IMG/VR virus record: IMGVR_UViG_3300037471_000673
Span: 32-64,031 of that record
DNA: 64,000 nt
Direction: 5' to 3' (one strand)
Source: a virus
Taxonomy: Duplodnaviria; Caudoviricetes
Every line of letters begins with the position of its first letter. The stretch's first letter is position 1. The position numbers and the translations under genes are program-made. Positions 12,881 to 33,087 of this stretch are shown here, one piece after another. The notes under the pieces were generated by a model. It was given only the letters and a program-made list of their open reading frames with translations, was not told the DNA's origin and did not search any database.

Positions 12881-13012
12881 GGGTGGCTTCCTTGGTTAGG
12901 GAGTCTGGATTATTTACGTAGCTCAGCTGTTGCGCAACTAATTTTTGGCGCTTACTTGCAAGCGTAAGTGATGCCGATCGACAGGCACTCTACGCGCGGC
13001 GGTTGCCCGAGA

Positions 13013-13423
13013 TCATGCGCCTCCTCGCAACGTATCGCTGTCCTGACGACTGAGAGGTGCGGGCTCAGGCCGCACCCAGACCGTTGCTGGCTGGCTTTGA
13101 GGTGCTGCCACTGCGCCTGCAGCGGGGTCGGCAGCGGCGGCAGCAGCGGGCGTGGCTGCGGCGGCTTGGGTAAGGGCCCCACGGGCTGCCCAATGGCCAA
13201 ACCCGGCCACGCCGCCGGCAACAAGAAAGCCAAAAGCAGACAGCGTGTCAGGATCGAGAAAGACCACGAGCGAGGCATATTTCGTTCCTCCCAGAGCTTT
13301 CACTGCTACTGCAGCAATGGCCGTGATCGCGGCGGCGAGCGCGGTGCGGTCGTGGTGTGCGAGTGCTTCTTCGACAGAGCGTTCGTCACGCCACGCGGTC
13401 AAGGCGGTGGGGATCAGGTTCAC
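13013..13423 (-). CDS. Membrane protein (holin/antiholin or spanin-like)
   Basis: GTG start overlaps the upstream stop; two hydrophobic segments and an Ala/Pro-rich tail. Confidence 0.6.
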   Translation of the reverse strand: MNLIPTALTAWRDERSVEEALAHHDRTALAAAITAIAAVAVKALGGTKYASLVVFLDPDTLSAFGFLVAGGVAGFGHWAARGALTQAAAATPAAAAAADPAAGAVAAPQSQPATVWVRPEPAPLSRQDSDTLRGGA

Positions 13424-13695
13424 GAGCGTTCCTTTGCTTGCACCATCAGACGCACGATGGCTGACCACAGCGGCGAAAAACACGCTGCGATGATCTGGTT
13501 GGGTTTGCCCTCTTGCACCAGAATGATGTCGCCGTCGTGGCTGCGTGCGAGGTGGCCTTCCTTGGTGGGCTCCTGCTGCGCCAGCCGCGCGACATCGGCC
13601 AACCGCTTGAGTGCCTTGGTGTGAGCGGTGTAGTCGTGCGCCTCGTAGGCGTTGCGTACATCGAGACTTAGGTGGTCGACATTGACGATGGTCAT
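13420..13695 (-). CDS. Hypothetical protein
   Basis: GGAGG RBS; coupled to the endolysin stop. Confidence 0.65.
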   Translation of the reverse strand: MTIVNVDHLSLDVRNAYEAHDYTAHTKALKRLADVARLAQQEPTKEGHLARSHDGDIILVQEGKPNQIIAACFSPLWSAIVRLMVQAKERS

Positions 13696-14303
13696 GCGAG
13701 TGCCTCCTGCGCGCGCTGCGCGAGTTGGGTGATGTGCTCCATGCCCAGCGTGCCGCCATTGACTTTGCGCCGCAGCTTGACTTGGTCGCCGAGCATAGTG
13801 TCGGGGATGGTTCCTTCCCACCAGCCGATCGCAGCATCGAGGCCGTAATGCGGCTGCAAGATCAACTGGGGCAAGACAGTGAGGTCTTGCCCAATGAGGT
13901 CTCCGACGTGGTCGTAGGCCGCGCGCCCCGTGATCATGATCGGGCACTTGCCGGCGAAGTCCCAGCCGTCCTCGGGCTGCGTGTTGCCCATGCGCCCACC
14001 GTACACCTTGTTGGCCAGTGCGCGTGGGTTGTGTGCATAGGGCACGGCGTCATCCACGCGTGGAAAGCGCATCGGCCACACGGCAACGATGCGATCAGCG
14101 GAGTAGTTCAGGTTTTCCTGCAGGCATTCGAGCATCGAGCACTCCCACAGGATTTGCGGCAGCCACGACTTGATATCGTCCATGCCGGCGGAGAAGCGCT
14201 CGGGCTGTACTTCATCCTCGAAGGCTGAAGCCCACGCGACGGCCGTCGTTGCCTGCACACCCATCGCGCATAGAATACGGTCCCAGTCGCGTTCGGTGAT
14301 CAT
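13692..14303 (-). CDS. GH19 (chitinase-like) endolysin
   Basis: PQILWE...QENLNYSA...NPRALANKVYGGRMGN...DGW...ITGR..Y pattern of phage GH19 lysins. Confidence 0.85.
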   Translation of the reverse strand: MITERDWDRILCAMGVQATTAVAWASAFEDEVQPERFSAGMDDIKSWLPQILWECSMLECLQENLNYSADRIVAVWPMRFPRVDDAVPYAHNPRALANKVYGGRMGNTQPEDGWDFAGKCPIMITGRAAYDHVGDLIGQDLTVLPQLILQPHYGLDAAIGWWEGTIPDTMLGDQVKLRRKVNGGTLGMEHITQLAQRAQEALA

Positions 14304-14590
14304 GGTGCGAAGTCCTTGCGTGAGCTGTCGGGGGGTTTGGCTGACCAGCGCCGCCGCGTGGACTGGATAAGCAGGGCCATCGCGATTACGCCAAGCGCGT
14401 GGTGCAGCGTCACTTCGCGGCCGTGAAGCACGTCCAGCGCCACACCGAACGCGAAGGTCGCGGAGAACGTGTACGCCAGTATCACGACCTGCCGGTGCGT
14501 GTTGGCATGCAGCATGTCGAGTCGGCAGATGCTCGCGCCGACGACGAACAGGCACACAAGGAGGAAGGCCAACGTGAAGATAAAGGTCAT
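14300..14590 (-). CDS. Putative holin (3 TM)
   Basis: Three hydrophobic segments, a basic C-terminus, and position next to the endolysin. Confidence 0.65.
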   Translation of the reverse strand: MTFIFTLAFLLVCLFVVGASICRLDMLHANTHRQVVILAYTFSATFAFGVALDVLHGREVTLHHALGVIAMALLIQSTRRRWSAKPPDSSRKDFAP

Positions 14591-14949
14591 GTTTGCTTCC
14601 CACGCCAGCGTGAGATGAACGCTTCCAGAATCGCCCCGGCGTTCTTGAGTATGAACGCGGCGAGTGCCTGCGCGAGCAGCCCACCACCGAGGCACGCGAG
14701 GATCAGCATCGGCCGCGACGTCAAGTGCAGGTAGAGAACCGCGCAATTGCCGATCGCAGCGCCCGCAAGCACCGAGAGCATGACGTAGACGATCGCGCGC
14801 GTTCGCCCCATCTGCTCGGCATGTGGCAGGGCCAGCAGCGCGCCCACGAGGGCGTACAGCAGGCTGTAGTAGTCGACACCGAACAGCGCCAGCGACGCCG
14901 TCGAAAGAGCCGCGGCGACTGCAGCCGCGATGCCAGTTTCAGGAACCAT
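14587..14949 (-). CDS. Putative holin-like membrane protein
   Basis: Multiple TM segments (LLYALVGALLAL; VLAGAAIG); GGAGG RBS. Confidence 0.65.
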   Translation of the reverse strand: MVPETGIAAAVAAALSTASLALFGVDYYSLLYALVGALLALPHAEQMGRTRAIVYVMLSVLAGAAIGNCAVLYLHLTSRPMLILACLGGGLLAQALAAFILKNAGAILEAFISRWRGKQT

Positions 14950-15538
14950 CACCCTCCTCCATCGAGACGTAATGAATTGGGGCGGTGGCCAGCGCCGCCA
15001 AGGCCATGTCGGTCGGCACATACCGGCCGGGATCATCTGCATGACGCGGCGCGGCAAGCTCGATGCCGCTTTGCCGCCTGCGCAGTGCAACCGCCTTGGC
15101 GCACCAGCGGCGGGGGTGCTCGTCTTCATCAGGCGGCAGCATGTTGGCACCTGCTGCCACTGCGCCTTCCTTGCTGTAAAGAAAAGGCGATGTACCCAGC
15201 TCGCGCCACCAGCTCTCGCGTTCGGCCTTGGACATCGGCCGGGCCAGCGGTACCCAGAAGAATCCATTCTCGGCCGTGGCAGACACGAGCACGCACCGCT
15301 CGTGCGGCACGACGGACTCGTAGACAACCAGCCGAGGCTCCCCGCCGATGGCGATCCAGTCGAACACCGCCACATGTGCGAACGGCCCCGTGAAGCGCTG
15401 CACAGCCTCGATCTGGATGCCGTACCACGTTGCCACGAAATCGTGGTGCAGGAATAAAAGATCGCCCGATGCGATTTGCGAGCGGGCCTGCTTGTAAGGC
15501 AGGCCCGCTCGCATGAGGGCATCGATATCGATCTTCAC
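14939..15538 (-). CDS. Permuted papain-like NlpC/P60 (YiiX/YebB-like) enzyme
   Basis: SGDLLF...FAHVAV (His) precedes YSKEGA...WCAKAV (Cys), the circularly permuted order. Confidence 0.7.
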   Translation of the reverse strand: MKIDIDALMRAGLPYKQARSQIASGDLLFLHHDFVATWYGIQIEAVQRFTGPFAHVAVFDWIAIGGEPRLVVYESVVPHERCVLVSATAENGFFWVPLARPMSKAERESWWRELGTSPFLYSKEGAVAAGANMLPPDEDEHPRRWCAKAVALRRRQSGIELAAPRHADDPGRYVPTDMALAALATAPIHYVSMEEGDGS

Positions 15539-15540
15539 GT

Positions 15541-15963
15541 TCAGTCTCCGTGGGTGGGCGTGTAGTTGCAATGCATCGGGTGGCCGGCGAGTTCTTCGTG
15601 CACACGGCACAGGCGAGCGAACTCGCGTTTCTCGGCACCCGACTGCCATACGGCCGCGGCTGCGACAAGGCCGACAACCGGAGCCGCTGCGGCCGCACCA
15701 GCAAGCACCAGCAGGTTGCTCGCCGTCGCGCCCCACTTCACCGACGAAAGCGTGTGCAGGCACTGCGTCTTGTCAGGCTCGGGCAGCGTCTCGCAGTAGC
15801 CGGCAAACGCGAAGCCACCGATGCAAGCGGGCACGGCACCGATCGGATTGAGTTCGACGCCGAAAGCACTCGTGATGCAGTCCGACGCGCTGGCAGCCTG
15901 CACGGTATTGCCCATGGCAGCCCCAGCTGCGAGAAGAAGCAGCGAGGCGAGAAACTTTTTCAT
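15541..15963 (-). CDS. Secreted Cys-rich protein
   Basis: Signal-peptide-like N-terminus MKKFLASLLLLAAGAAMG; six Cys. Confidence 0.7.
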   Translation of the reverse strand: MKKFLASLLLLAAGAAMGNTVQAASASDCITSAFGVELNPIGAVPACIGGFAFAGYCETLPEPDKTQCLHTLSSVKWGATASNLLVLAGAAAAAPVVGLVAAAAVWQSGAEKREFARLCRVHEELAGHPMHCNYTPTHGD

Positions 15964-15977
15964 AGTGCCGGTCTCCT

Positions 15978-16775
15978 TTACTGTGTACCCACGCAGATGA
16001 ATTGATACTTGTCACTGGTTGAAGGGGCGGTGCCGTTCGTCGTCACCGTCATGGTTGTCGTGGTGGTGACGACTGCGATCGGCATCTTGCCGACGACCAT
16101 GGTGGAAAGCGCCGACTGCACCACGCATGCCGGCGCGCTGGCCCAAGTTCCGTTGAACGTAACGACCCAGCCGCTTGCCGGCGCCCCCGTGCCCCCCATG
16201 GTGACGATGCCGGCGGTATCTGTGCCGGCAACACTTGAGGAGGTACCGCAACTTGCAGTACACGTCGGGGCCGTCGTCTGTGTCGCCGCCAGCTGGGTGG
16301 CACCAGTTCCGGTACCCTGCACAAGAACCTTTGCGGTCGTGCCGCGCCACTTCGGGCTGCTTGCATCGGTCGTGAACAAAGGCGAGGTGTCGAAAACAAA
16401 CTTGCCGGTACCTGTAGCGCCCGTACTCGTCACACCCTCAACCGTCTGATGCCCTGTGAAGGAGTTGGCAGCATCCGTGCGCGCGATAGTCGCCGAGGTC
16501 GACGGGAAAGTCATCGTCGTGCCGTCAGTGCCTGCGAGCGTCAGCGAGTTGTTCACGGTCAGAGCCTTGCCGGCCACACCTGAATATCCCGCTGACGATG
16601 CGAGCCGTGTCCACGTGTTTGTCGCCGAACAGAAATACTCCCCGGGTCGAGAGCTTCCCTGCAGGTAGGTCGTATCGCCTGTCGTGCAAGTGGTAGGCAA
16701 CACAACGCTGACCGAGTCCGCGCCTGCGGCGCACACCGATGCAAAGAGAAGAAGGAGTGCGAGAGTTCGTTTCAT
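15978..16775 (-). CDS. Fibre-like protein with N-terminal signal peptide
   Basis: MKRTLALLLLFASVCAAGA; T/G/S-rich body; C-terminal VTFNGTWASAPACVV fibre-tip-like domain. Confidence 0.7.
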   Translation of the reverse strand: MKRTLALLLLFASVCAAGADSVSVVLPTTCTTGDTTYLQGSSRPGEYFCSATNTWTRLASSAGYSGVAGKALTVNNSLTLAGTDGTTMTFPSTSATIARTDAANSFTGHQTVEGVTSTGATGTGKFVFDTSPLFTTDASSPKWRGTTAKVLVQGTGTGATQLAATQTTAPTCTASCGTSSSVAGTDTAGIVTMGGTGAPASGWVVTFNGTWASAPACVVQSALSTMVVGKMPIAVVTTTTTMTVTTNGTAPSTSDKYQFICVGTQ

Positions 16776-16780
16776 GGTGT

Positions 16781-18802
16781 TCAGCTCGTCGGCGCGTTGA
16801 GTGTGCGATAGACCGTCGTCAAGCGCAGCGCACCTGCGCCGGGGTTGACGTTGGTCGTGACGGTCAGCGTCGTGGCGCTCGCCACATATTGATCCGCGTG
16901 GGCGCACGGAACCAGCACGTAAGTGGTCCCTGCCGTCAGCGTGGCATTACTCGTCACGGCCGTGCCGATCTGGCAGAACGCGTTGCCACCGGTAACCTTC
17001 ACCGTGAAGTTCGCAGCAGTCGTGATTGTCGTCGTGACACGAACCAGAATCGAATCGATAATTCCAGACGCTGCGGCAAGGTTACCGGCCGTGTTAGTCG
17101 TCGTCGCACCAGTTGCAAGGGTGAGTAACTCGGACGCGGAGTTCCGCGAAACGTAGGAGCCGTTCGCGTCAGCGATGACTTTGTACGCCCCTTTAGTCGT
17201 CCCTGCAGTAGCCCCAGAAAATCGAAACACTCCTGCTGCATCGCGGTCAAGTATGGTATCCAACGTCCCGTTGTAGGCGCCGCTAGTGAATCCAAGTGGG
17301 CTGGTGCTTGAGAACTGAATGTTGCCGGCAATGCGCAAATCGCTTTGCCCGTCGATACGGCCGGAGAAGGTGTTGTTCCCGGCAATACTGTTCGCTTGCC
17401 CACTCGCGCCGAGGGTCAGCCCGCCGAGAAAGTTGGCTGCGATAACCGACGTTCCGTTTTTCTGAATGTCGATGATGTTGCCGCCCGCTTGCGCGGTAGG
17501 AACGACATTCACCAACAGCCCACTGAACGTCACGGCGCCGTTATTCCACGTTTGCGTAATCGTGAAAGGATCGCTCGCAGTGATAGTGCCCGCACCGAAG
17601 GTCGGGATGCCGTTGGCGCTGACGGACGAGTGAAGCACCGCACCGAACGCCCCCGCGTTGCGGTACTGCAGCTCCGAACCCGTTCCCGCAGGAGTCGCAC
17701 TAATTGCGATGTCGCCCGAACCGATGATGCTCGTGCTGTTGATCGTCTTGAGGTCCGTGCCGCTGACGATGGCAGAAAATCCACCGGAGCCGTTGCCCTT
17801 CAGGATGCTCGTGCCACTCGTAGCTGGTGCGTAGTCCGTTCCACTCGTCGCCGCGCTCACGAGTCCCGCACCGTTGGCCTTCAGAATGCCGCTTGTCGTT
17901 CCTGCTCCGCCGCGAGCCGCCGCGAGCGTGCCCGACGAAATATTGCTCGCATTGGTCGTGTCGGTTGTGGCCGATGCCGCAAACGCTGATCCGTTTGTCT
18001 TGGTACAGGTGATGCCACCCGTGCTCGCGACTGCGCAGTCCCCACTCGCGCTAACCGGTGCGTACGCAGTACCACCTGCATTGCCTACAAGCAGCTGCCC
18101 CGCACTCGGGGCCGTGTTGGGGACAATCGCAGCTTTTGTTTGTGTATCGTTCGTGACGCTGCCTAAACCAACATCGGAGGCCGTCACCGTCACGTTCGCG
18201 CTCAGCGCATGGCCGTTAACGGTGGTCGAAGGTGCGACGTAATCGACAGCTGCCGTCGCGCTACTAAAACCACCTGTACCACTACCTTTGAGAATCGACG
18301 TGCCACTCGTGGCGGGCGCGTAATCGGTCCCGGACGTGGCATTCGCGAAACCCCCCGTGCCGCTGCCCTTGAGAATCGAGGCACCACTCGTGGCGGGCGC
18401 GTAATCGACCCCACTCGTGGCCGCGGTGATCGGGTTCACTCCGTTGCCCAGAAGTAGCCCGGTAATCGTGGAGAGCGTCGCCGTCGTCGCCGTGATGCTG
18501 CCGGTACTTACGCTCGTCGGCGTGATCGCACCAAGCCCGACAGAAAAAGCAGGGGTCGTCGTCGGGGTGCCAACAGTGCAAGTAACACCATTCGCCGGAG
18601 TACACGACGCGCTTGTGACGGTGCCACCACCCGTGAACGTCTTGATCTGGCCCGCCGTGATCTTGACACTCGCACCGGACTGCACACCGTAGACCAGCTC
18701 TGGCCCACTCAGCGCTGAAGCCGCCGGCAAGTTCGACAACGTGGAACTCTGGCCAAACGCCAGCCCCCACACGAGGGCCAATAGGCCAACAACGCGCTTC
18801 AT
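16781..18802 (-). CDS. Tail fibre-like protein with signal peptide and internal repeats
   Basis: MKRVVGLLALVWGLAFG, then LSNLPAASALSGPELVYGVQSG (fibre N-terminal motif); repeats of ATSGxDYAPATSGxSILKGxGxGGF. Confidence 0.8.
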   Translation of the reverse strand: MKRVVGLLALVWGLAFGQSSTLSNLPAASALSGPELVYGVQSGASVKITAGQIKTFTGGGTVTSASCTPANGVTCTVGTPTTTPAFSVGLGAITPTSVSTGSITATTATLSTITGLLLGNGVNPITAATSGVDYAPATSGASILKGSGTGGFANATSGTDYAPATSGTSILKGSGTGGFSSATAAVDYVAPSTTVNGHALSANVTVTASDVGLGSVTNDTQTKAAIVPNTAPSAGQLLVGNAGGTAYAPVSASGDCAVASTGGITCTKTNGSAFAASATTDTTNASNISSGTLAAARGGAGTTSGILKANGAGLVSAATSGTDYAPATSGTSILKGNGSGGFSAIVSGTDLKTINSTSIIGSGDIAISATPAGTGSELQYRNAGAFGAVLHSSVSANGIPTFGAGTITASDPFTITQTWNNGAVTFSGLLVNVVPTAQAGGNIIDIQKNGTSVIAANFLGGLTLGASGQANSIAGNNTFSGRIDGQSDLRIAGNIQFSSTSPLGFTSGAYNGTLDTILDRDAAGVFRFSGATAGTTKGAYKVIADANGSYVSRNSASELLTLATGATTTNTAGNLAAASGIIDSILVRVTTTITTAANFTVKVTGGNAFCQIGTAVTSNATLTAGTTYVLVPCAHADQYVASATTLTVTTNVNPGAGALRLTTVYRTLNAPTS

Positions 18803-19011
18803 GGTGAGTTCTCCAATTTCAAATCCCCGGAGTTGTCTTCAAGGATGACCCTGCTCGAACCATCCTCTTGAAGCAAATAAAAACTCGGGTCGACAAACGA
18901 CGAAGACGCGTCCGTCATGCGCAGAACCGAAAACTTCAGGGCCGGGCCAATCGCCACGACGGAGCGCGCGTTTGGCTGCGTGACCCTGACTTTGATCACG
19001 GCGCCACCCAC
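18799..19011 (-). CDS. Small virion-associated protein
   Basis: YLLQEDGSSRVILED motif typical of fibre-associated proteins; start uncertain. Confidence 0.55.
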   Translation of the reverse strand: MGGAVIKVRVTQPNARSVVAIGPALKFSVLRMTDASSSFVDPSFYLLQEDGSSRVILEDNSGDLKLENSP

Positions 19012-19595
19012 GCGTAGCCGTAGATGATCGGATCGATGCGCCCACTCGCATACTTGATCTCGGCGTCGAACGCGTAGCTGTCCCGAGTGAGCGCCGCAAT
19101 CTGGACATCCGTGATCGTGATCGTCACAGTCTTGGCGGTGTTGTCTAGCACGACGCCGCCCGCGGGGCTGGTGAGCGCCAGCAATACGTTGCCACCGGGC
19201 TCGTCGCGCAGGTTCATCGTCACCAGCGCACCTGTCAGGTCCACAGGGGTGTAATACTGCAGCGCACCGCCTGAGACATACGCGCCAAACCCCAGCGAGC
19301 TGATGTCGTTGAACTCAATGTGATCGACGTCGATCACCGTCACCGGTCGATAGTCACTTGCCCGCGGCGGCGAATGTGCCGCGTTGATCTCGGTCATGCC
19401 GACCACATCGGCAACTGCCGCAGCAAGTCCGGTAACCAGCCCGTGCCCCACCGCCGTGATACGCACGGGAGCCGCGTTGGTGATCCCTGTGATCGGCCTG
19501 TAGACAATCGGCGCATCGGCCAAATACAGCGTGCGCACGAAGGTCGTGCCGCGCACCAGCGTGAAGTCGCAGTTAAGGCCGCGGGGGTCCATCAT
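18996..19595 (-). CDS. Virion structural protein (FCCH-like ITGITNAAP..IT...HGL domain)
   Basis: ITGITNAAPVRITAVGHGL...ADVVGMTEIN motif found in phage tail proteins. Confidence 0.7.
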   Translation of the reverse strand: MMDPRGLNCDFTLVRGTTFVRTLYLADAPIVYRPITGITNAAPVRITAVGHGLVTGLAAAVADVVGMTEINAAHSPPRASDYRPVTVIDVDHIEFNDISSLGFGAYVSGGALQYYTPVDLTGALVTMNLRDEPGGNVLLALTSPAGGVVLDNTAKTVTITITDVQIAALTRDSYAFDAEIKYASGRIDPIIYGYAWVAP

Positions 19596-20047
19596 GCGAT
19601 CCGGATCAGGCCCGTGACGTTGTCGTCCGTGGGCATCGTCAGGCTGAAGTTGGCCGCCGACACGGTGGTGGCGCCGAACGTGAACACCGCCACTGCCCTG
19701 TTGCTCTGCGTGGAGTTGTAGAACAACACACAGTCGAACGAGGTCGACAGCGTCACCGTACTCCACGCGATAGACGCCGAAGGCGTCCAGTGCGTCACGT
19801 CCGATGTATTGGATGGTGCTATCGCGTTGGTAATCGCTACACCGCCCGCGGTGTAGTTGGTACCAGTCACTTCATTGGTCGCGCTGTACGCGGTCGTCGT
19901 CTTGTCGATGGTGGCGGTCGCAACATACAGCGCTGCCTTGAACGTGTCGGGCGTCGTAACTGCACGAGTGACCGAAGTGCCGAACGCGTGGATCGCGTTC
20001 ATCAGCTCTGTCTTGAAGCTGTTGCAAACGGCTTGGGTGTTGGCCAT
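19592..20047 (-). CDS. Virion structural protein
   Basis: FKAALY...NEVTGTNYTAGG motif common in tail-region proteins; AAAGGA RBS. Confidence 0.75.
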   Translation of the reverse strand: MANTQAVCNSFKTELMNAIHAFGTSVTRAVTTPDTFKAALYVATATIDKTTTAYSATNEVTGTNYTAGGVAITNAIAPSNTSDVTHWTPSASIAWSTVTLSTSFDCVLFYNSTQSNRAVAVFTFGATTVSAANFSLTMPTDDNVTGLIRIA

Positions 20048-20330: not shown

Positions 20331-23300
20331 CTATTGCGTCGGCATAGCGGCAAATCGCTCGCTGGCGGTGAGCGCCGGGTACTGGCGCTTGGATGCCGAG
20401 ACACCCGTGCCGGAAGCCAGCCCGAGCATGTACGCCATCGTGCGCCCACGAATCGCGCTACCAATCTCTTGCCCTGTGATCGGCTGCGTCGGGTTCTTGG
20501 CGTTGAACGCCTGCATGTCTTGACTTGCCTGCGCAATCTTCGACGGATCACTCACGCCCTTGTAGAAGTTGTCGACGATCACATCGCGACGATGCTTCAG
20601 CAGCTGCTGGTTTGTATAGAAGTCGCGTGCCGCTTCGCCTTGCTCCGCCTTATCGGCCGTCTGAAACCCCAGTGCGCGCCACGCCACATCGCCCGCACCG
20701 GGCTTGAGCGGAATCGGGTTGCCCTTGGAGTCCGTGTAGTGACCAAGGCGTGCGAGTTCTTCGGCCTTGAAGTAGGTGCGCAGGCCCACCGGCAGCGCCG
20801 CCTCGATGCCCTTGAGCCAGTAGCCATCGGACATCTTGCTGAACGCATCACCCAGATCGAGCCCGAGGCTCACGGCCGGCCCGAGCATCGAGCGCGCCTG
20901 CGCTTCGCTGCGGTCTTTCCACAGCATGCGGCTGGCAAGGAAATCGGAGCCCGGCAGGATGCCTTGCAGACCGAACGTGCTGCTGTCTACACCAGCGAGG
21001 TTGGGCAGCCCGTGCATCAGCAGCCCCGCCACGTCGTGTCCAAACACCGTGTCGGCCCAGTTGCGGATCGAGATGCGCACGTCTTCTGGCTTGTCCTCGT
21101 CGCGCATGAAGTTGTTGTAGATGCCAGCGAAGGCATTCGCGAACGGCAGCCCGAGCGCGCCGCTGACCATGGCGGTGGTAGCCATCAAGCCCGCGAACTC
21201 GCGCCGCGCCTCGGTGGCGCGCTGCAGGCCCTCGGGGCTCTTGTCCTGCCCGAAAAAGCCGTCGTGTGTCGTGCGCGCGATCTGCTGCATGGTCTGCAGC
21301 GCATATTTCATGAACTGCGTGAACAGCGGTGTCAGCGGTCCGGCCACGCCATGACGCCCAGTGGCGCGATCGGTGTTTGCAGGATCGAAGTTATCCATCG
21401 CGAGGTTGATCGCACGGATCGCGTAATCGGTGCTGGTCTCCTTACCAAGCAGCCCCGGGCGTTGCTCGGCGAGCCGGAATGCGGACAGGCCCATCACAAG
21501 CCGGTTGGACATCTCCGACAGCTGCGCCGTTACCGAGGCCATGCGCAGCAGGTCTTTGTACTTGCGCGTGCCGGCGGCTTCCGCGGCTTTCATCAGCTGC
21601 TGGCTCTCACCCAGATCGAGCACACCGCGCAGGTGCAACTCTTCGAGGAACGCCTGCTCGTTGGCCGGTAGGTCCAAGTCTTTCAGCTCGATGGGCGCTC
21701 CGATCAGACCGCGCGCGCCATCCTTGGCCACCGCCGCCCTGATGGAGTTGGCCACGATCTTCATTGCCACCGGCGTCGCTCCGGCCAGTTCGCGCACCGC
21801 CTGCGCATAGCCGAACTTACTGCCAGTGATCGGGATACCTCGGTGCCACGGCTGCGCCATCGTACGCAGGAAGAACGCGGGTGACAGGCCGAGGTAGAAG
21901 CTGTGCGAAAGCGACGTCGCCGCACTCACGATGGAATTGCCCGTGGGCTTCATCATGTCGGCAAAGCGCTTGCCAATTTCGCTGTCCACCTGCTGCGCAC
22001 GAACGCGGCCTTCGAGGCTGCCAGTCTTATTGAGCTGCTCGATTGCTTCGCTGCGCTGGCGGGCCGCGTCCATGTACGCGCGGTTGGTGTAAAGCCCTGC
22101 GGTCTCGTGTACCGCGGCGCCCGCGCGCCGCGCGAAGCTGTTGGCGAAATTGGCGTCGTAGCCCGGCACACCGCGGCGCTGCATGTTCGCGGATCGCGCG
22201 GCCGTCTCGGGCAGCATCGACATCACCTGCCGCGCGATCGACGCCTTCATCAGCGCCGCCTGATCGGCGCGCAGGCCGGGCGTATTGGCCACCGTGTCGT
22301 CGAGGCTGGAAAGCAGCGAGCGCAGCGCAGGGGCCACGCCGCTCGCCTCGTTGGGGTGCTCGGCCAGCAGGCCATACGACGAGCCGGACTCGATCTTGTC
22401 CTGCCCTGCAAGCAACAGCCTGTCGTGCAGCGCGCGAGCCTCGTCGATCGAATCGACCCGGAAGAACGCGTGGGAGTCACCTCGCGTCAGATCGCCCACC
22501 ACCTTGTTGGTGCCTTCAAGCGCCTTCTGGATGCGCGCGTTCGCTGCGGCATCGACCCCCTTGAAGTTCAACTTGACGAAATAGTCGCCGTCGCGTCCGA
22601 GGCTGAAGTACGGGTTTTTCACCTGCGCGAAATACAGATCGGCAAGCGCCTTCATGTGTTCGCGAAGGGGTGTGCCTACCGGCAGCTGCGCGGCAGCTTG
22701 AAACGCATTGGCCAGCCGCTGCCCCAGCACTGCAGACGCGCCGTCCGCAAAGCGCACCGGGTCCGGGTTCTTCGCCGTGCGCAGCGAGCGGTCCATGAAG
22801 TCCAGCAGGGGCGAGTGCTGCGCTGCGAACGTGCTCTCCAGTGTGGTGGCCTTCACCTGCGCCTGCAGCTGCGCGAGCCGCGCATCGGCCGGGTCCATGC
22901 GCTGCAGTTCCGCTGCAAGACGCCGTGCCACGCCAGCTCGCGCATCCATGATGTTGGCCGCGAGCGTGGAGACCTTGTTGATCAGGGCCGCACGGTTCAA
23001 CCGTTCGCCGTCTTCCAGCGCCTTGGCCAGCTCCGGATGCTGGCGCTGCAGCTGCGTGAAGCGGCGGTGAATCTCGTCCATGTACGGCTTGTCGGCCGCA
23101 TTGAGCGTCGGGTCCGCGGCGATGTTGTCGCGACCGTTCTTGCGGTAGTCGAAGCCCACGCGGCTTGCCTCGCCGCCGATGATGGCCATCTCGCGCTGCA
23201 GCTGCTGCGCCTTGGCAGCATCGCCCGTTTCGCGCAGCGAGCGCTCCAAGGCGCCGATGTATCGGGAGCCGGCGAGATTGAGATGCTCGGATGCCACCCG

Positions 23301-26300
23301 GTGCGACGTGTTGGCCGCCTGAAAGGCATCCACACCGCGCGAGAAGCCGCTGGCCACCATCTCGGGGATACCGCGAATCTGGTGCGCGATGAAGTCCACC
23401 GTCTTCAGCGGCAGCACCGCAGCGAACGCTTTCTCGGAGAGCTTCGCGAACGGCGTGCGCTCGTTGTCGGCGGCCATGATCACGCGATTCAGTGCGCCCG
23501 TGAACGCATCCGCCGCGTGTGCCGGCGTGCTGGAGAAATCGGCCGCAATACGGTTCTCGGAGAAGAACGGCTCCGATGCGTCGAGCGCGCGCTCCAGCAG
23601 GGGACTCTCGCGCTCACTCATCCCCAACAAGCGACGGATTGCGTTGACGACACGGCCCCAGAGCGTGGGGGCCTGCTTGAGAAATTCGCGGAACTGTGCG
23701 TTCGCGTGCAGTTCGGCGACGAACTCGCGCACATCGGTCATGCCGTATTGGCCGTCAGCCCCCGGAAGACGCGCCGCCTCGTGCATCGCCTGAGTGAGAT
23801 CGAGCGCCGCAGCCTTCAGCTGCGCGTCGCGCTGATCGATGACTTTTGCACCTCTCAGTAGCTGCGCCGCTCGATCGAGCTGCGAGACCGTCGCTGCGTG
23901 CGTCGCCTCGTGCAAGAGCGTCGATTCGGACGCGGCATTGATCCGGATCATGTTGTCGCGATGGTTGTACGTCGCGACCTGAAGCAGCGGAGCGCCGTCA
24001 TTCGAGGTGCCTACCGTTAGGACTTCCCGACCGGCGACGATGCCGGTTTCAGGCAGCAACTTCTCCAGCTTCGCTGCCAGCTCGCGCACCCACGGGTGCG
24101 AGCCATTTTCCGACAGGTGCGCGAGCACGTCGGCAACCTTGTGCGAATACGCAGCCGGCACCAGCAGCGCCGGATTCACCTGATCGGGGTGCTCCATCGT
24201 CGGGCCGCCGAGGCGCGAGAGGATTTCATCAGTGCCCGTCGTGCCGCGTTTTGTTCGCGTGTACGGCTTGCTGGCTTCGTACACGAAGTGCGAGATGAAG
24301 TTGACGTACGCCGCATCGGAAGGCGACGCCTTGCCTTCCGTGTACGCGCCGATGGAGTGCGCCGCGCCGGTCAGGTCGTTGAAGCGCTCCTGCTCCAGCG
24401 GCGAGAGCTTCTCACCAGCGCGCATGCGCGCCGTGAACTCGGCGCGCAGCGCTGCAATCCTGTCAGCGGTTTCATCCGCCAGCTCAGACAGGCTGCGCAC
24501 ACCGGAGTCGCCTTGGAACTCCTCGTTGCTCGGGGGTGGCGCCGCTTCTTTCTCGGCCTGTGCACGAGCGCGCGCGTCGCGCCGCTCGGACAACGTCATC
24601 TTGGCTTTCGAGACCTTCGGCGGCTTGGGCGGAATGTTATCGGGCATGCCCGACACGCCCGGCGGCCGCGGCGCGATGTTCTCGCCAAGAGCAGCCGCTT
24701 GCGCAGGCGGCTCGCCCAACGCGTCGGCAGCATCCAGCTCCTTGGCCTTGGGTTCCACTGCGGCGAGGTGATCGAGCTTGGTCTGCAGCTGCTCGGCCTT
24801 CGCCTCGTCAGGATGTGCCACCAGATCGGCGGCTTCGGCCTGTGCGCGATCGCGCAGCTGTCCCAGCACTTCCACACGCGTGGCCCCGGGCTGCTTGAGC
24901 CCTTCGAGTACCGCCTGCCGGCCTGTCTGGGTGCCGGGCTCCGCGGCCACCTGCGTGTCGGTCTTGGCCGCGGCCGCTTCCGTTTTTTCGACTGGAACCG
25001 GCTCGGGCTCCTTGGCGGGCATCTCGGCTTGCAACTTGTCCGCGAGCATCGACATGCGGTCGCGCATGCCTTGGCTGACTTTTTTGTCATCGGCCACAGA
25101 ACGGATCGCGTCGATCTGCTCCTGATGCGTAGCCATCTTGTCGATGCCCAGCGCGTCGAGGCGCTTCTCGAAAGGCACCCGGGCCTGCGCCTTGGTGTCC
25201 ATGTCGTTAGCGGCCATCGCCTCGTGCCAGTCGGCAACGAGCGCGTCTTTCGTCTTCGGGGCATTCACATCCGGCTTCAGTTCACCGCGCTCGGCCGCCT
25301 GAGCCAGTGCCTCGCCGTGCGCAATGTTCTGAATCGCGTCAAGCTGCGCCTTCTTGGTGGCCTCTTGCTGCGCGAACGCGGCGTCGACGTCGCGCTTTTT
25401 CAGCGCCTCGGTCATCGCTGCCGCCATGGCCGGAACGCCCGGTGTGGACTCTGCCTGCGTATCTACGGGCGGCGGGTTGCGCGGCGTCGTCGCGGCAGCC
25501 TCTTCGCTCGCGCGCTGTTGCGCGAGCGACTCTTGCAGCTTGTCGTACGCGTCCGCGTCCTGCCGCATCAGGTCACGCTGCGTGTCCGGACTGGCGAGAT
25601 AGTCCCGATACGCCTTGGCGCGTTCCTGCCCCTTCAGGTCTTTGGCCGCGTCGCTGGCATAGAAGTCCTTGCGAGACATCGGCGCAGCCGGCGCCACGCC
25701 ACCATCGGCCAGCGCCTGCTTCACCTGCGCGTGTAGATCGAGTGCGTCCTTCGGGATCGAGTTGTCGACTTCCTGCGCACCGTACCCAAGCAGCTTTGCG
25801 CGTGCAGCGACTTGCTGGTCTTCCGGCAAACCTGCAACGTAGTTTTCGACATCGGAGCGAAACCCCGTAGTGCCATCGGGGAACACCACCATCTGGCCAG
25901 CCTGTGGGTCGCGTCCGAGCAGCGGAGGGCCACTCGGTTGGGGTTGCACTGGCGCAGGCGCTTCTGGCTCCGGCATCGGAACCGTGACCGCCCCGGGCTG
26001 TAGCAAGCTGCTGTCCACGTCCATGTGCAGCCTGTGCTGGATTGCGATGTTGGCGTTCAGCCTGAACGCGCCTGCCGCTTGCGGATCGACCTTCTGCAGC
26101 GCCGCGGCGTACTCGCCCGCCAGCTGGGAGCGAATCTCGGGCGGGCTGTCGCCGTTGGCCAGAGTAAACGTGCGGGTCTGCGCGGAACGCACCGCGGCGG
26201 CCCGCGCAACAAGCCCGAGCGGTGTCATGAGCGCCGTCATGCCCAGCGACGCGCCGATCGTGTCTTTCGCCGCCTCTGCCGGCGATGTGTTGTCGATGCC

Positions 26301-27068
26301 GTAGTTGTTCTCGATGGCGGCACTTGTCGCCGCCTGCGCTGCGTTCAGGCCCACAGCCTCGCCGACCGAAAGCGGCAACTGCTTCAGGAACGGCATAAGC
26401 GTGCCGTTCGTGCCGGTAAGCGCGGCCATCGTCTCTTGCGCGAGCGGGGCGCCTTCCGACTGGAAGATCGACCCCATGGCCTGCCCGAAACGCCCGAGCA
26501 GCTTTCCGCCCACGAAGCCGAGGGCGGTCTGGGAAGCGAAGGTCTGCGCTGCGTTCAGGCGCGCCGCGGTCTGGGCCACATCGGGTGCCACGCCTGCCTT
26601 CTCGGCTTTCTCCAGCGTGGCTTGCCCCTGCTGCGCGCCGAACAGCGCACCGGCACCTGCAATCGCTGCACCACCTGCGAGGAGCGGAGAGGCCCCCAGC
26701 GCGCTGGCACCGGCACCGATAGCCAGCGGTACCCCAGCGGCCGGCGCCAACATCTCGGCACCAGATGCCAGTGCGTTGGTAACCATGCCGTGCTCGCCGG
26801 GCTGCAGCATCAACCCCGGCGCTTGCCCGCGCTCGGTCGCATTGTCGATGAGCGCACGAGCAAACTCGTGCACACCGCTGCCCGGTGTGGTGGCGTACTG
26901 AAGCGCCTGACCAGCGAGAGTGGGCAGCCCTACGAGCGCGCCGCGCGCGAGGCCCGTTGCGACTTCTGCGACAGGCCCGCGTGGTGGTGCGGGCGGCACC
27001 GGCACCGCTTGGCTTGGGTCGAACTGCCCGGGGGCTAGTGTCGCTTGGCTCGGATCGAACTCGGCCAT
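20331..27068 (-). CDS. Large internal virion/ejection (polyvalent-type) protein with zincin motif
   Basis: 2245 aa; N-terminal FDPSQA x2; TLLHEATHAAT...EFVAEL metallopeptidase motif. Confidence 0.8.
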   Translation of the reverse strand: MAEFDPSQATLAPGQFDPSQAVPVPPAPPRGPVAEVATGLARGALVGLPTLAGQALQYATTPGSGVHEFARALIDNATERGQAPGLMLQPGEHGMVTNALASGAEMLAPAAGVPLAIGAGASALGASPLLAGGAAIAGAGALFGAQQGQATLEKAEKAGVAPDVAQTAARLNAAQTFASQTALGFVGGKLLGRFGQAMGSIFQSEGAPLAQETMAALTGTNGTLMPFLKQLPLSVGEAVGLNAAQAATSAAIENNYGIDNTSPAEAAKDTIGASLGMTALMTPLGLVARAAAVRSAQTRTFTLANGDSPPEIRSQLAGEYAAALQKVDPQAAGAFRLNANIAIQHRLHMDVDSSLLQPGAVTVPMPEPEAPAPVQPQPSGPPLLGRDPQAGQMVVFPDGTTGFRSDVENYVAGLPEDQQVAARAKLLGYGAQEVDNSIPKDALDLHAQVKQALADGGVAPAAPMSRKDFYASDAAKDLKGQERAKAYRDYLASPDTQRDLMRQDADAYDKLQESLAQQRASEEAAATTPRNPPPVDTQAESTPGVPAMAAAMTEALKKRDVDAAFAQQEATKKAQLDAIQNIAHGEALAQAAERGELKPDVNAPKTKDALVADWHEAMAANDMDTKAQARVPFEKRLDALGIDKMATHQEQIDAIRSVADDKKVSQGMRDRMSMLADKLQAEMPAKEPEPVPVEKTEAAAAKTDTQVAAEPGTQTGRQAVLEGLKQPGATRVEVLGQLRDRAQAEAADLVAHPDEAKAEQLQTKLDHLAAVEPKAKELDAADALGEPPAQAAALGENIAPRPPGVSGMPDNIPPKPPKVSKAKMTLSERRDARARAQAEKEAAPPPSNEEFQGDSGVRSLSELADETADRIAALRAEFTARMRAGEKLSPLEQERFNDLTGAAHSIGAYTEGKASPSDAAYVNFISHFVYEASKPYTRTKRGTTGTDEILSRLGGPTMEHPDQVNPALLVPAAYSHKVADVLAHLSENGSHPWVRELAAKLEKLLPETGIVAGREVLTVGTSNDGAPLLQVATYNHRDNMIRINAASESTLLHEATHAATVSQLDRAAQLLRGAKVIDQRDAQLKAAALDLTQAMHEAARLPGADGQYGMTDVREFVAELHANAQFREFLKQAPTLWGRVVNAIRRLLGMSERESPLLERALDASEPFFSENRIAADFSSTPAHAADAFTGALNRVIMAADNERTPFAKLSEKAFAAVLPLKTVDFIAHQIRGIPEMVASGFSRGVDAFQAANTSHRVASEHLNLAGSRYIGALERSLRETGDAAKAQQLQREMAIIGGEASRVGFDYRKNGRDNIAADPTLNAADKPYMDEIHRRFTQLQRQHPELAKALEDGERLNRAALINKVSTLAANIMDARAGVARRLAAELQRMDPADARLAQLQAQVKATTLESTFAAQHSPLLDFMDRSLRTAKNPDPVRFADGASAVLGQRLANAFQAAAQLPVGTPLREHMKALADLYFAQVKNPYFSLGRDGDYFVKLNFKGVDAAANARIQKALEGTNKVVGDLTRGDSHAFFRVDSIDEARALHDRLLLAGQDKIESGSSYGLLAEHPNEASGVAPALRSLLSSLDDTVANTPGLRADQAALMKASIARQVMSMLPETAARSANMQRRGVPGYDANFANSFARRAGAAVHETAGLYTNRAYMDAARQRSEAIEQLNKTGSLEGRVRAQQVDSEIGKRFADMMKPTGNSIVSAATSLSHSFYLGLSPAFFLRTMAQPWHRGIPITGSKFGYAQAVRELAGATPVAMKIVANSIRAAVAKDGARGLIGAPIELKDLDLPANEQAFLEELHLRGVLDLGESQQLMKAAEAAGTRKYKDLLRMASVTAQLSEMSNRLVMGLSAFRLAEQRPGLLGKETSTDYAIRAINLAMDNFDPANTDRATGRHGVAGPLTPLFTQFMKYALQTMQQIARTTHDGFFGQDKSPEGLQRATEARREFAGLMATTAMVSGALGLPFANAFAGIYNNFMRDEDKPEDVRISIRNWADTVFGHDVAGLLMHGLPNLAGVDSSTFGLQGILPGSDFLASRMLWKDRSEAQARSMLGPAVSLGLDLGDAFSKMSDGYWLKGIEAALPVGLRTYFKAEELARLGHYTDSKGNPIPLKPGAGDVAWRALGFQTADKAEQGEAARDFYTNQQLLKHRRDVIVDNFYKGVSDPSKIAQASQDMQAFNAKNPTQPITGQEIGSAIRGRTMAYMLGLASGTGVSASKRQYPALTASERFAAMPTQ

Positions 27069-30218: not shown

Positions 30219-31934
30219 TCATCCCACAGTGGCAACATCGTTGAACCAGAGGTTGCTGCTATTCAGTTGCAGGACAACTTGGCCCTTGAACCACAGCACC
30301 ACCCACGAAGTCGATCCGTCGTTTACGTCCCCGATGGTCGTGCCGTCATCAGTGACGTGATTGCCCTCCCCGAAGGTGCAGCCCGCGGGGAGTGGAAGAA
30401 ACTTCACGCCACCGTTTTCCGTCCACGCCCACGGCCGGCCGGTGTCATTCGTGCCGCCACAAGTAGCCGTGCCACCATACGACACGCCATCGGTGTAAAG
30501 CTCGCCAACCGGGTGAATGGTGAATAGCGTCGGGGTCCAGCGCACTTGTGCCAAGGTTGTCCCACCTTGCGTGCCAACGTCATCGAGCACCGCTCCGTTG
30601 CTGCCGATCCACGGGCTGGCAGCATTCGGGTTTGGTATCCCGGCTGGCAGCTCCATCCACTGCACTCCAGTCGACACCGAGTACCGCATCGGCCTTTGGT
30701 CCGCGCCAAACGCGAAACCTGAGAAAAAGCCGCTGTTGTAGTAATACCCTTCAGGCTCCCATCCTGCGACCCACTTGCCGTCGATCGACACCCACGACAG
30801 AGCCACTGTGGACGAAATCGTCTGCAAAGGAACCGTGAGCTGTAGTGTGCTGCTCGGGGTGTTATACATCCCGTGAATAGCCACCGTCATTCGATCCGTC
30901 GAGCCGTCCCACGAAAACACAAGTTGCGTCTGATAGGCGAAAGCGCTCGAATAGCTCAAGTTGTATGTCGTGCCTGCGAGCCCGGTTGAAGCGCTGAAGG
31001 GTCCGTAGATAGTTGCATACGTTACTGTCGGTGGAGTCGGCGTCGGGTAGTTCGCAATGTCCGGGGACTGCGAGGCGATGAACGACATCCACTCATCGAG
31101 TGTCAGGTCGTCTCTGTAGTACACGTTATTTGGCGGGCCGCCCCACACACCTACTGTCGAAACAGTCGCACCGTCATTGATCTCAAATACAGCCATCGCA
31201 GGGATGGTGAGAGCGCCGTAGCCCGGCGAAGAAAATTGCTGCCACTCTTGAACAGCCACGCGCACCGTATGCGGGTAAGGGTTGCGAATCGGAATCGACG
31301 GCAAAGAGGGAATGACTGGTACGCCGGCGGCGAAGTCCCAGACAAGCGCCGAGCCGCTGAAGACTCGCCCCATCGGATCGAAGAAATTCCAAGTGATCCC
31401 GCTGCGGTGAAGCACCCACGCTCCACTGACCTGTTTCCACCACACGACCTCGTCGTAGCTGCCGTTGTGGAGCCACCCAACCACTGCTACCAGCACACCG
31501 CTTTTCGTAATGATCGAAGTTGCTTCCCCATCGGCACCAAACCCACCATCGGGCAAGAGCGTCGCGCCGGCACTCGTCCAGAGCGTCGGCTTCGAGAACG
31601 TCGCGATGACTTGGTATCCAGCAACGAACCAACGCGCCCCCGGTGATGTCGGCTGCGTCTCGGAAAGACCCTGCTGCGCAGCGCCCGCACTTTCCGTCGC
31701 GGTGACCGGCGGCGTGATTCTCACGATGTCGTTGCCTGCGATCGAGCTGCAGCGAATAGTCGCGCCGTCCGGCAGCACGACTACGCGGGTGTGCGCGACA
31801 CTGGCGCCCAACTGCATGAGATTTTTCAGGATGCCCAGCTGCGTGCGCGCAACACCGACATACTGCATCGACGCTGCGCGCTCCTCGGGGGACTCTCCAA
31901 AGAAGAAATGAATCCCGCTGAGATACTCACGCAT
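30219..31934 (-). CDS. Tail-associated/receptor-binding protein (beta-rich C-terminus)
   Basis: Conserved-looking N-terminus (VVVLPDGATIRC) followed by an aromatic, beta-strand-rich region. Confidence 0.65.
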   Translation of the reverse strand: MREYLSGIHFFFGESPEERAASMQYVGVARTQLGILKNLMQLGASVAHTRVVVLPDGATIRCSSIAGNDIVRITPPVTATESAGAAQQGLSETQPTSPGARWFVAGYQVIATFSKPTLWTSAGATLLPDGGFGADGEATSIITKSGVLVAVVGWLHNGSYDEVVWWKQVSGAWVLHRSGITWNFFDPMGRVFSGSALVWDFAAGVPVIPSLPSIPIRNPYPHTVRVAVQEWQQFSSPGYGALTIPAMAVFEINDGATVSTVGVWGGPPNNVYYRDDLTLDEWMSFIASQSPDIANYPTPTPPTVTYATIYGPFSASTGLAGTTYNLSYSSAFAYQTQLVFSWDGSTDRMTVAIHGMYNTPSSTLQLTVPLQTISSTVALSWVSIDGKWVAGWEPEGYYYNSGFFSGFAFGADQRPMRYSVSTGVQWMELPAGIPNPNAASPWIGSNGAVLDDVGTQGGTTLAQVRWTPTLFTIHPVGELYTDGVSYGGTATCGGTNDTGRPWAWTENGGVKFLPLPAGCTFGEGNHVTDDGTTIGDVNDGSTSWVVLWFKGQVVLQLNSSNLWFNDVATVG

Positions 31935-33087
31935 CGCCGCCACCGACACGGCGCGGCAACTTGATCAGCTTGGGCTCGACGATATCAAGACTGAAATCGC
32001 TGCCGTCGCGGTTGCGGATTTCAAACTGCCAGTAGCGCGCTTCCAGCCCGCGCCCGAGCTTCACATGCGCGCCATGCAGCCCCGGATCGCTTGGCGCTGC
32101 GATCGCATAGTCGCGCGTCCAGCGCTCGTCGGTAATCACGCGCAGCAGCATGCGCCCGCTGGCCCGCATGCCGATGTAGACGCGCTCGACGCGCTTCAAG
32201 TGCGAAGTGCCGAAGTCGGTAATACCGACACGGGCAGCAGACTGGATGGGCGCCCCGTTGTCCGTCGACCCGGACAGCGTGAACACGCCAGCATCACTCG
32301 CGCCCAAGAACACGCCGTTGAACGCCGCGAAGGAGTTGAAGGGGTAGTTCGTGTATTGCGTCAGCGCCTGCCGCTCGGTGTGCATGACAAGAGCCATCGA
32401 GCCGCCGATGCGCGTCGGCACCCCCACCATGTGCAGATACATCGCCGGCAGCGCCAGCGCAAACGACCCGCTCAAGGGCCCGTAGCCCGTCATCCCCAGC
32501 CGGAAGGGCGGCAGCTGCAGCGCCACGACCCCCGCCGTGCCGGTGGCGCCGGACAGGGACATCGCCGCACCGCGCAGCGCCAGCGCCAACCGACCGCTGG
32601 TGGCCGTGACACCCGCGAACGCGAAGGGCGCTGGCGGCAGCGCAATCGCGAGATCGCCGACACTGGGGACCGCCGATGCCAGCGCTACGCGCAGCGGTGG
32701 CAGCGCGAGCCTCAGATCGCCGACTTCGGCCGTGGCTCCTGTCAGCGCAAGGCTAAAGGCCGGGAGTGCCAGTGCGAACCGATCGGGGCCCTGCATCGAC
32801 AGCTGCAGGGGCGGGAACGTAAGATCGAACGTGCCGACGCTCGGCACCACGCCTGTCGCCGAAACCCGCGGCGCGGGCAGGCGCAGCTGCAGATCGCCCG
32901 CTTGCGCGGAGATGCCTGCCATCGATACGCGGAAGGCTGGCAGGCGCAGCCGCATCGACTGCGGTGTGGATGCGACCCCGAGTGTCCCCAGCCCGACCGA
33001 CAGGCTGACGCCGGTCAGCCTGATCGAGACATTGGCTTTGACAGTCCCAGTCGCACTGGTGACGGCTACGCCGGTCAGTGCGGGCAT
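31927..33087 (-). CDS. Virion structural protein with LxLxLP repeats
   Basis: Repeated GDLxLALPP motifs; C-terminal GRGLEARYWQFEI. Confidence 0.7.
   Translation of the reverse strand: MPALTGVAVTSATGTVKANVSIRLTGVSLSVGLGTLGVASTPQSMRLRLPAFRVSMAGISAQAGDLQLRLPAPRVSATGVVPSVGTFDLTFPPLQLSMQGPDRFALALPAFSLALTGATAEVGDLRLALPPLRVALASAVPSVGDLAIALPPAPFAFAGVTATSGRLALALRGAAMSLSGATGTAGVVALQLPPFRLGMTGYGPLSGSFALALPAMYLHMVGVPTRIGGSMALVMHTERQALTQYTNYPFNSFAAFNGVFLGASDAGVFTLSGSTDNGAPIQSAARVGITDFGTSHLKRVERVYIGMRASGRMLLRVITDERWTRDYAIAAPSDPGLHGAHVKLGRGLEARYWQFEIRNRDGSDFSLDIVEPKLIKLPRRVGGGDA

Follow-up and report, generated by a model that had tools for sequence, protein, structure and literature searches.

The locus described here raises the question of what fibre-type proteins with secretion-type leaders do for a tailed phage, since, to our knowledge, the accepted view is that tailed-phage particles are assembled in the cytoplasm in all their parts. 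It belongs to a 64-kb soil phage (Duplodnaviria; Caudoviricetes) recorded in IMG/VR as IMGVR_UViG_3300037471_000673, and the window, i.e. the whole stretch of DNA analysed, comprises 64,000 nucleotides (nt; positions 32 to 64,031), nearly the whole record of 64,031 bp. Three adjacent open reading frames (ORFs) on the minus strand, P0001 (16781-18802), P0002 (15978-16775) and P0003 (15541-15963), are located between the tail and lysis genes of the late operon. Secretion-type leaders on all three genes indicate that the encoded proteins very probably fold outside the cytoplasm, the compartment in which particles are assembled. The reading preferred here, tentatively, is that the trio acts at the envelope and is not built into virions. 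The features on which the argument is based are the following:

16781..18802, minus strand: P0001, 673 amino acids (aa), leader-bearing tail-fibre-type protein (ORF and start; exact protein on 4 contigs)
18752..18802, minus strand: predicted P0001 signal peptide, residues 1-17, MKRVVGLLALVWGLAFG↓QS (rule-based scan; AF2 free helix at residues 7-13; leaderless homologues begin at the leader end)
18635..18739, minus strand: P0001 N-terminal motif of canonical fibres, residues 22-56 (matched in alignment by the very first residues of leaderless fibres, namely P0158, P0171, P0146 and those of viral loci L022 and L023)
17768..18424, minus strand: P0001 shaft, TSGTDYAPATSG..ILKG.G.GGF repeats and Cys-pair loops C67/C75 and C256/C266 (sequence)
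16784..17179, minus strand: P0001 C-terminal jelly-roll 'foot', residues 542-673, with C610/C633 (AF2 pLDDT ~90; structure matches)
15978..16775, minus strand: P0002, 265 aa, leader-bearing fibre-tip protein (ORF)
16719..16775, minus strand: predicted P0002 signal peptide, residues 1-19, ...CAAGA↓DS (rule-based scan; AF2 helix at residues 5-15)
15981..16328, minus strand: P0002 C-terminal beta-sandwich tip, residues 150-265, invariant C172, C176, C217 and C261 (alignment A1; pLDDT >90)
15541..15963, minus strand: P0003, 140 aa, predicted type I membrane protein with a leader, a periplasmic part with 4 Cys, a transmembrane segment at residues 83-106 (nt 15646-15717) and a Cys/His-rich tail (sequence)

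Starts and leaders of the three genes

The start codon of P0001 overlaps the stop of the upstream gene (ATGA) and is preceded by GGAG 8 nt upstream, the ATG of P0002 lies 5 nt past the P0001 stop, and AGGAG is found 9 nt upstream of the P0003 start. The homologue P0185, 77% identical to P0002, is of equal length and has the same start site; its leader has diverged from that of P0002, whereas both proteins keep the mature start ADS..VLPTTC.

Leaders were called with a rule-based scan requiring a net positive n-region, an uncharged h-region of 8-16 residues with a mean Kyte-Doolittle hydropathy of at least 1.7, and agreement with the -3/-1 rule; a Sec / signal peptidase I leader was defined by a total length of about 15-30 residues and small residues at -3 and -1. 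All three proteins satisfy these signal-peptide rules, with predicted cleavage at AFG↓QS (17/18) in P0001, AGA↓DS (19/20) in P0002, and ASA↓SD (26/27) or AMG↓N (18/19) in P0003. The scan was passed by 17 of the 411 genome ORFs of at least 60 aa, among which only P0001, P0003 and one ORF of the lysis region (12952-13278) are plausible genes, the others being antisense to, or within, real genes; P0002 also passes when read from its ATG. With four leader genes among about 85 genes, the chance that three of them form a run is about 0.003. Export through the Tat route was rejected because none of the three n-regions contains RR, and a lipoprotein route was rejected because the lipobox [LVI][ASTVI][GAS]C is absent, the closest sequences being FASVC in P0002 (Val at -1) and ASDC in P0003 (Asp at -1). 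The leaders on all three genes thus look like genuine Sec / signal peptidase I leaders, and export of the products is likely.

P0001, a tail-fibre-type protein with an added leader

No match to Pfam, PHROG or NCBIfam was found for P0001, P0002 or P0003, and a sequence search of the proteins of this region against PDB chains returned compositional noise only. P0001 has 1309 homologues at E<=0.001, mostly recovered through the shaft repeats. The motif LSNLPAASALSGPELVYGVQSG, which directly follows the P0001 leader, is the N-terminal motif of leaderless fibre homologues. The leaderless P0158, P0171, P0146, L022 and L023 begin 4-8 residues ahead of the LPAA motif, whereas P0001, P0130, P0010, L021 and L024 carry a leader of 17-24 residues before it, with a small-x-small site at that same point, so that cleavage would recreate the canonical fibre N-terminus; P0206 and P0207 represent another leader-bearing and leaderless pair of this kind. 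As aligned, the P0001 leader is an add-on placed exactly at the start point of the leaderless homologues.

The TSGTDYAPATSG..ILKGNGSGGF repeats of the shaft are common to hundreds of fibre-like proteins, some of which carry PF19264, PF13884 (S74 chaperone domain) or PF12708 (pectate-lyase domain). The AF2 model of P0001 is a monomer in which the shaft (pLDDT <50) is unreliable, and only residues 545-673 (pLDDT ~90) were used. The best solved match of this foot is 8gtc_S, residues 116-230, from the baseplate of siphophage R4C (Z 11.7, 113 aligned residues, root-mean-square deviation (rmsd) 2.8 A); the next solved structure scores three Z units lower. In the R4C tail fibre this residue range forms the foot, which is described as lectin-like and carbohydrate-binding (PMC10276861). 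The top BFVD match is the tail fibre protein of Achromobacter phage phiAxp-2 (E 1.9e-8). The foot also matches XepA and YomS (6i56_D, 6i5o_A) with Z 7.3, well under the top match. With the shared N-terminal module, repetitive shaft and receptor-binding-type tip, P0001 is by sequence and modelled fold a complete tail-fibre-type protein, a description that does not imply its presence in the virion. In the database protein P0369, the P0002 middle module (TMTFPSTxATIARTDAANxFTGHQT...) is fused with the P0001 C-terminal domain, which indicates that modules shuffle between the two gene types.

The first-pass annotation had described basic, hydrophobic and small-residue N-termini on three ORFs, a fibre motif directly after the leader of the largest protein, and a fibre-like nature of two of the three. 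Each of these is supported: the starts stand and the scan is positive, the motif heads leaderless homologues, and homology and fold place P0001 and P0002 among fibre-type proteins. Its suggestion of structure prediction for a trimeric fibre was answered in part, as the AF2 monomers have fibre-type tips but the P0001 shaft could not be modelled reliably.

The P0002 family and P0003

An exhaustive HMMER search of 1.84 billion representatives yielded 1848 matches to the P0002 family at E<=0.001. The conserved domain of about 110 residues is always at the extreme C-terminus, in proteins of 135 to 2329 residues, and the N-terminal regions contain no common anchor or post-leader domain in alignment A1. 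The P0002 tip matches tailspike C-domains, R-pyocin fibre tips, AP22 gp53 and an H-type lectin with VIA Z scores of 5-6.5, which are suggestive yet in the range of the common beta-sandwich, and uncultured-phage proteins in BFVD with E values down to 4e-7. The nearest Atlas clusters are all viral and score <0.9, which serves as a lead only.

Pattern searches of IMG/VR located 14 loci of the family, and 13 of the 14 ORFs have a leader. The sole leaderless viral copy is a P0002-type tip that ends an 887-aa protein of locus L009, the N-terminus of which looks, on a reader's inspection, like a pectate-lyase-type tailspike. The same patterns gave 0 copies in 185,579 species genomes, scans of genome contigs with the P0002-family alignment or the major capsid protein revealed no prophage relatives and gave no host assignment, and neither megablast of the region nor tblastn of P0001 and P0002 found a match in 50,697 GenBank phage records. 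Judged from its alignment and model, P0002 is a short fibre-tip protein; its family is large, occurs in metagenomes and viral contigs, and consists mostly of leader-bearing members.

P0003 is an orphan with no family match and an uninformative Atlas result. Its sequence is that of a predicted small type I inner-membrane protein.

Leaders, cysteines and the residue after the cleavage site

Leader-like N-termini are present in 113 of 139 P0002-family representatives, these being the best ones that start with Met. Among P0001 homologues, leaders were found in 39 of 66 proteins of the C-domain set and 33 of 116 of the whole-length set. These frequencies suggest that leaders are selected for family-wide.

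Each mature protein of the trio has six Cys, which form three local pairs in P0001 and are divided in P0003 between the periplasmic side (four) and the tail (two). Proteins with a leader exceed those without one two- to threefold in Cys content in each of the four homologue sets: the pooled content in leader-bearing versus leaderless proteins is 1.32 vs 0.44% (P0001 whole-length set), 1.68 vs 0.70% (P0001 C-domain set) and 0.72 vs 0.38% (P0001 N-terminal set), and outside the invariant tip of the P0002 family it is 0.67 vs 0.29% (p = 0.008). Even Cys counts occur in about 90% of the leader-bearing proteins of the P0002 and P0001 C-domain sets and in 67-69% of those of the other two sets. One shaft module illustrates the difference, reading GDCAVASTGGITCTK in P0001, GDCTxTSxGVxTC in the leader-bearing P0010 and GDATLSSAGALTVTK in the leaderless P0019; neither P0019 nor the leaderless P0004 has Cys at the GDCxxxSxGxxTC position. 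The enrichment is a feature independent of the leader itself, as expected for folding in an oxidising compartment, and the paired-cysteine idea of the earlier annotation therefore holds, both for the trio and for its mostly even-numbered homologues.

Gln occupies position +1 of the predicted cleavage site in 53-74% of the leader-bearing homologues (sets P0004-P0406), and P0001 would expose Q18. Gln in this position is reported for signal peptidase I substrates of Bacteroidota (PMC10653852). On another viral contig, a 388-aa head-module protein (L014 9799-10965) has the leader-like N-terminus MKTLRVLTGFLMCTLVAAAFTVDAHA, and leaders on capsid-module proteins have been noted for Porphyromonas phages (PMC10367356).

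The cassette slot in relatives and the family in other phages

Five relatives have in common with this phage the conserved tail genes and the C-terminal third of a giant tail-region protein (44-60% identity). The slot that separates phrog_644 / phrog_1084 from the lysis genes is hypervariable in each of the five, and the genes found there are leaderless, unrelated and without similarity to P0001-P0003. Elsewhere in the window, a further gene is a candidate for a genuine fibre or spike:

30219..31949, minus strand: 576-aa leaderless protein, candidate genuine fibre or spike (tblastn against L002-L004 and L006 matches residues 1-81 only)

This protein has no family match and no leader. Conservation of about 80 N-terminal residues ahead of a unique remainder is what marks fibres and spikes that have a conserved anchor, and the gene probably encodes the family's true fibre or spike, whose receptor-binding part can be swapped. 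The absence of the trio from the five relatives and the presence of a separate candidate fibre indicate an accessory cassette, apparently late-expressed, of what seems to be a virulent tailed phage.

Genomic contexts of the P0002 family were drawn from the IMG/VR loci. On other viral contigs, the place of P0002-type genes within the structural module differs from one contig to the next, and other leader genes often stand in tandem with them: L016 has three between the major head protein and phrog_12985, L020 has two between phrog_12985 and the head-closure gene, L014 has its copies after the portal, and L021 has two in tandem. Comparison by tblastn revealed no partner gene common to this phage and others with the same N-terminal motif or tip. 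The G+C content at third codon positions (GC3) is 0.69-0.70 in P0001 and P0002 and 0.70 in the variable 576-aa gene, compared with 0.78-0.90 in most core genes. A simple sigma-70 scan found no promoter- or terminator-like sites within the cluster.

Proposed action at the envelope and its alternatives

From the gene structure, leader features, fibre homology and fold, cassette behaviour and Cys enrichment, all read from the sequence, we infer a course of events for the trio in which export, cleavage, disulfide formation, trimerisation, ligand and biological role are conditional. The proteins would be exported to the periplasm late in infection and would fold there with disulfide bonds, probably as trimeric glycan-binding fibres. 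They would then act from the envelope side, most likely as binders of the surface glycan that the phage uses as its receptor on the host, and would not become part of particles in the cytoplasm. Within the periplasm, a lectin-like tip could hold nascent surface glycan and so sequester the receptor; after lysis, the freed proteins could coat debris and neighbouring cells. In either case, superinfection or the loss of progeny to debris would be limited.

The envelope reading, in which the trio does not become part of virions, is favoured because relatives do without the cassette, there is another fibre candidate, the family behaves like a mobile cassette that has no common anchor domain, and there are precedents for both halves of the proposal. 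Several observations weigh against it. P0001 keeps the N-terminal motif that heads leaderless fibres, with an identity of about 48-60% by tblastn against viral loci and, in the database search, 83% identity to P0171 over a short stretch; if this motif is a virion-docking element, a virion role is argued for. The cassette is translationally coupled within the structural operon, and no terminator or promoter of sigma-70 type was found in it. In L009, the leaderless 887-aa protein has the same four invariant Cys as the P0002 tip, so the periplasm is not required for them. Finally, no ligand, outer-membrane route or anchor was identified from the sequences, and the leader calls are heuristic, coming from the rule-based scan alone.

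The alternative taken most seriously, because of the retained fibre N-terminus and the operon position, is that of virion fibres matured in the periplasm, although it is doubtful. P0001, perhaps tipped or accompanied by P0002, would be exported, cleaved and disulfide-bonded, with P0003 possibly acting as a membrane-anchored assembly factor, and would dock onto finished particles when the holin, the endolysin and outer-membrane disruption mix the compartments. The mature P0001 N-terminus equals that of canonical leaderless fibres, the slot between conserved tail-region and lysis genes holds other variable, leaderless genes in relatives, the genes are tightly coupled to the late operon, leader-bearing copies elsewhere also lie within structural modules, often in tandem, and P0003 is located where fibre chaperone genes often sit, a point of position that may hint at such a role. 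However, literature searches found no description of Sec leaders on, or Sec export of, a tailed-phage tail fibre, five relatives dispense with the cassette, a leaderless candidate fibre is present, the P0002-family N-terminal regions have no common anchor domain, and this phage has no partner gene in common with others that have the same N-terminal motif. In its most general form the proposal would be that some tailed phages route host-recognition fibres via Sec, with periplasmic cleavage and disulfides, and that docking has to wait until lysis, when the particles are otherwise complete. P0001, together with P0002 and possibly P0003 as periplasmic assembly factor, would be one instance of a widespread and so far unreported route; this we regard as unlikely. 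The first-pass annotation had suggested export followed by joining of virions at lysis. The leaders, fibre nature and Cys content agree with the export part, while the missing trio in relatives, the separate candidate fibre and the varying cassette positions speak against an essential role in the virion, and its other suggestion, action at the envelope or surface of the infected cell, is at least as likely.

It is improbable that the proteins are not exported at all, the N-termini being uncleaved anchors or assembly tags at the inner membrane face, or downstream in-frame starts giving conventional, cytoplasmic, leaderless fibres. In-frame TTG codons do occur at P0001 positions 22 and 25, just ahead of the fibre motif, the leaders were called by a rule-based predictor only, and the leaderless L009 protein shows that a P0002 tip can fold without export. 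Starts downstream of the hydrophobic stretch had already been named in the first-pass annotation as a possible objection, but the annotated ATG of P0001 has the ATGA overlap and GGAG, and the internal TTG codons have no clear Shine-Dalgarno sequence. Furthermore, small-x-small sites are kept over hundreds of diverged leaders, more than half of them followed by Gln, as in signal peptidase I substrates of Bacteroidota (PMC10653852), Cys enrichment and even counts track the leader, and leader sequences drift while their physicochemical character stays (P0185 vs P0002).

There is likewise a slim chance that the trio, or P0003 if not all three, functions as part of the neighbouring lysis cassette, as an XepA-like exported envelope attacker, an antiholin-like regulator or a spanin substitute. 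The genes are directly upstream of those for the holin and endolysin, the leader and C-terminal transmembrane segment of P0003 loosely resemble a unimolecular spanin, the P0001 foot scores Z 7.3 against XepA and YomS, and the phage does not have the embedded lipobox o-spanin of its relatives. Against this, P0003 has no lipobox, a Z of 7.3 is within the range of the common jelly-roll arrangement, P0001 and P0002 are plainly fibre-type with lectin-like tips, and the family does not adjoin lysis genes in other phages. As a unimolecular spanin, P0003 was rejected, since it has the C-terminal transmembrane segment (83-106) and no lipobox, and one unrelated gene separates it from the holin gene. A lambda-type moron or lysogenic-conversion gene was also rejected, as the cluster has no promoter or terminator of its own and the genome no integrase or recombinase.

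Comparison with known systems

Like the leaderless tail fibres of the R4C / RcGTA type (PDB 8gtc; PMC10276861), P0001 has the leaderless-fibre N-terminal motif, a repeat shaft and a lectin-like jelly-roll foot. Unlike them, it has a Sec-type leader, paired Cys and no sequence-level family.

The mosaic adhesive trimer (MAT) fibres of Bdellovibrio bacteriovorus are leader-bearing, phage-fibre-like trimers that work on the Gram-negative surface (Caulton et al. 2024, PMC10769870). They resemble the products of the trio in having a signal peptide followed by a fibre-like protein, and they have swappable tips and function outside the cytoplasm. However, MAT fibres form a chromosomal multigene family of a predator, in which a beta-rich domain about 130 aa long is conserved after the leader (PMC10769870). 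Membership of this family was rejected, as alignment A1 contains no conserved post-leader domain and the genes of the trio are phage-borne, in the late operon of a virulent phage.

XepA of PBSX, a late protein whose gene lies between those for tail and lysis, is exported and does not occur in particles (PMC6834076). The trio has the same location as the genes for XepA and SPbeta YomS. XepA differs in coming from a Gram-positive defective prophage and in being a pentameric dumbbell, on which the passages covered describe no signal peptide (PMC6834076), and the structural match of P0001 to XepA and YomS is accompanied by no sequence similarity.

Genes of Porphyromonas phages encode signal peptides that obey the Bacteroidetes Q-rule (Matrishin et al. 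2023, PMC10367356); the leaders reported in that paper are on capsid genes, spanins and genes to which no function is assigned, and none is reported on a tail fibre. P0001 resembles them in having a signal peptidase I leader followed by Gln (Q18).

Leader-bearing proteins that are not part of the virion are also encoded beside receptor-binding or lysis genes in other phages, namely T5 Llp, Cor of phi80 and N15, and Lom and Bor of lambda, and several of them block the phage's own receptor. In contrast to the fibre-type trio, which has no lipobox, these are small lipoproteins or outer-membrane barrels unrelated to fibres.

Genome setting and neighbouring genes

The phage genome has a G+C content of 62%, and CheckV estimates the record to be 100% complete. 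The late operon runs on the minus strand from the large terminase (42355-43788) through a portal-like protein to the major head protein (37448-38497), followed by a head-closure protein, several tail-region proteins and the 2245-aa giant protein (20331-27068). Next come the small conserved genes phrog_644 (19592-20047) and phrog_1084 (18996-19595), a 70-aa gene, and P0001-P0003. The last ~650 residues of the giant protein, also on the minus strand, are 44-60% identical in relatives and match phrog_30335 and phrog_22591, to which no function is assigned. The immediate neighbours of the trio are as follows:

18799..19011, minus strand: 70-aa gene directly upstream of P0001, its stop overlapping the P0001 start codon (ATGA)
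13692..15538, minus strand: downstream neighbour block, from the 199-aa gene to the endolysin gene
14939-15538, minus strand: 199-aa gene between P0003 and the holin-like gene
14587-14949, minus strand: holin-like gene, 120 aa (phrog_198 holin, E 0.0012)
14300-14590, minus strand: gene for a 96-aa membrane protein
13692-14303, minus strand: GH19-type endolysin gene (phrog_181 endolysin, E 2e-38)

No homologue of the 199-aa protein was found in any of the five relatives, and Pfam, PHROGs and NCBIfam gave no match to it. A 108-aa proline-rich ORF after the endolysin gene (12952-13278, minus strand) has a leader-like N-terminus and is o-spanin-like without a lipobox; it overlaps a longer ORF at 13013-13837. 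The lysis cassettes of relatives contain an embedded lipobox o-spanin (L003 18966-19181, L004 19919-20173 and L006 17676-17918), which points to a diderm host.

No tRNA genes, tyrosine integrase or serine recombinase/resolvase were found in the complete genome. The phage is therefore probably virulent, and a role of the trio in lysogens is unlikely.

Significance of a leader-bearing fibre-type family

Receptor-binding proteins are the main handle for the prediction and engineering of host range, and the present analysis reveals a large fibre-type family, in metagenomes and viral contigs, most members of which bear leaders and paired Cys. The family may also be a source of disulfide-stabilised glycan binders. 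If some fibres do mature in the periplasm, this would represent a new assembly route; if phages instead export copies of their own receptor-binding modules to the envelope, receptors would be masked or progeny protected in a new way. In both cases, fibre-like genes in viromes would come to be annotated differently.

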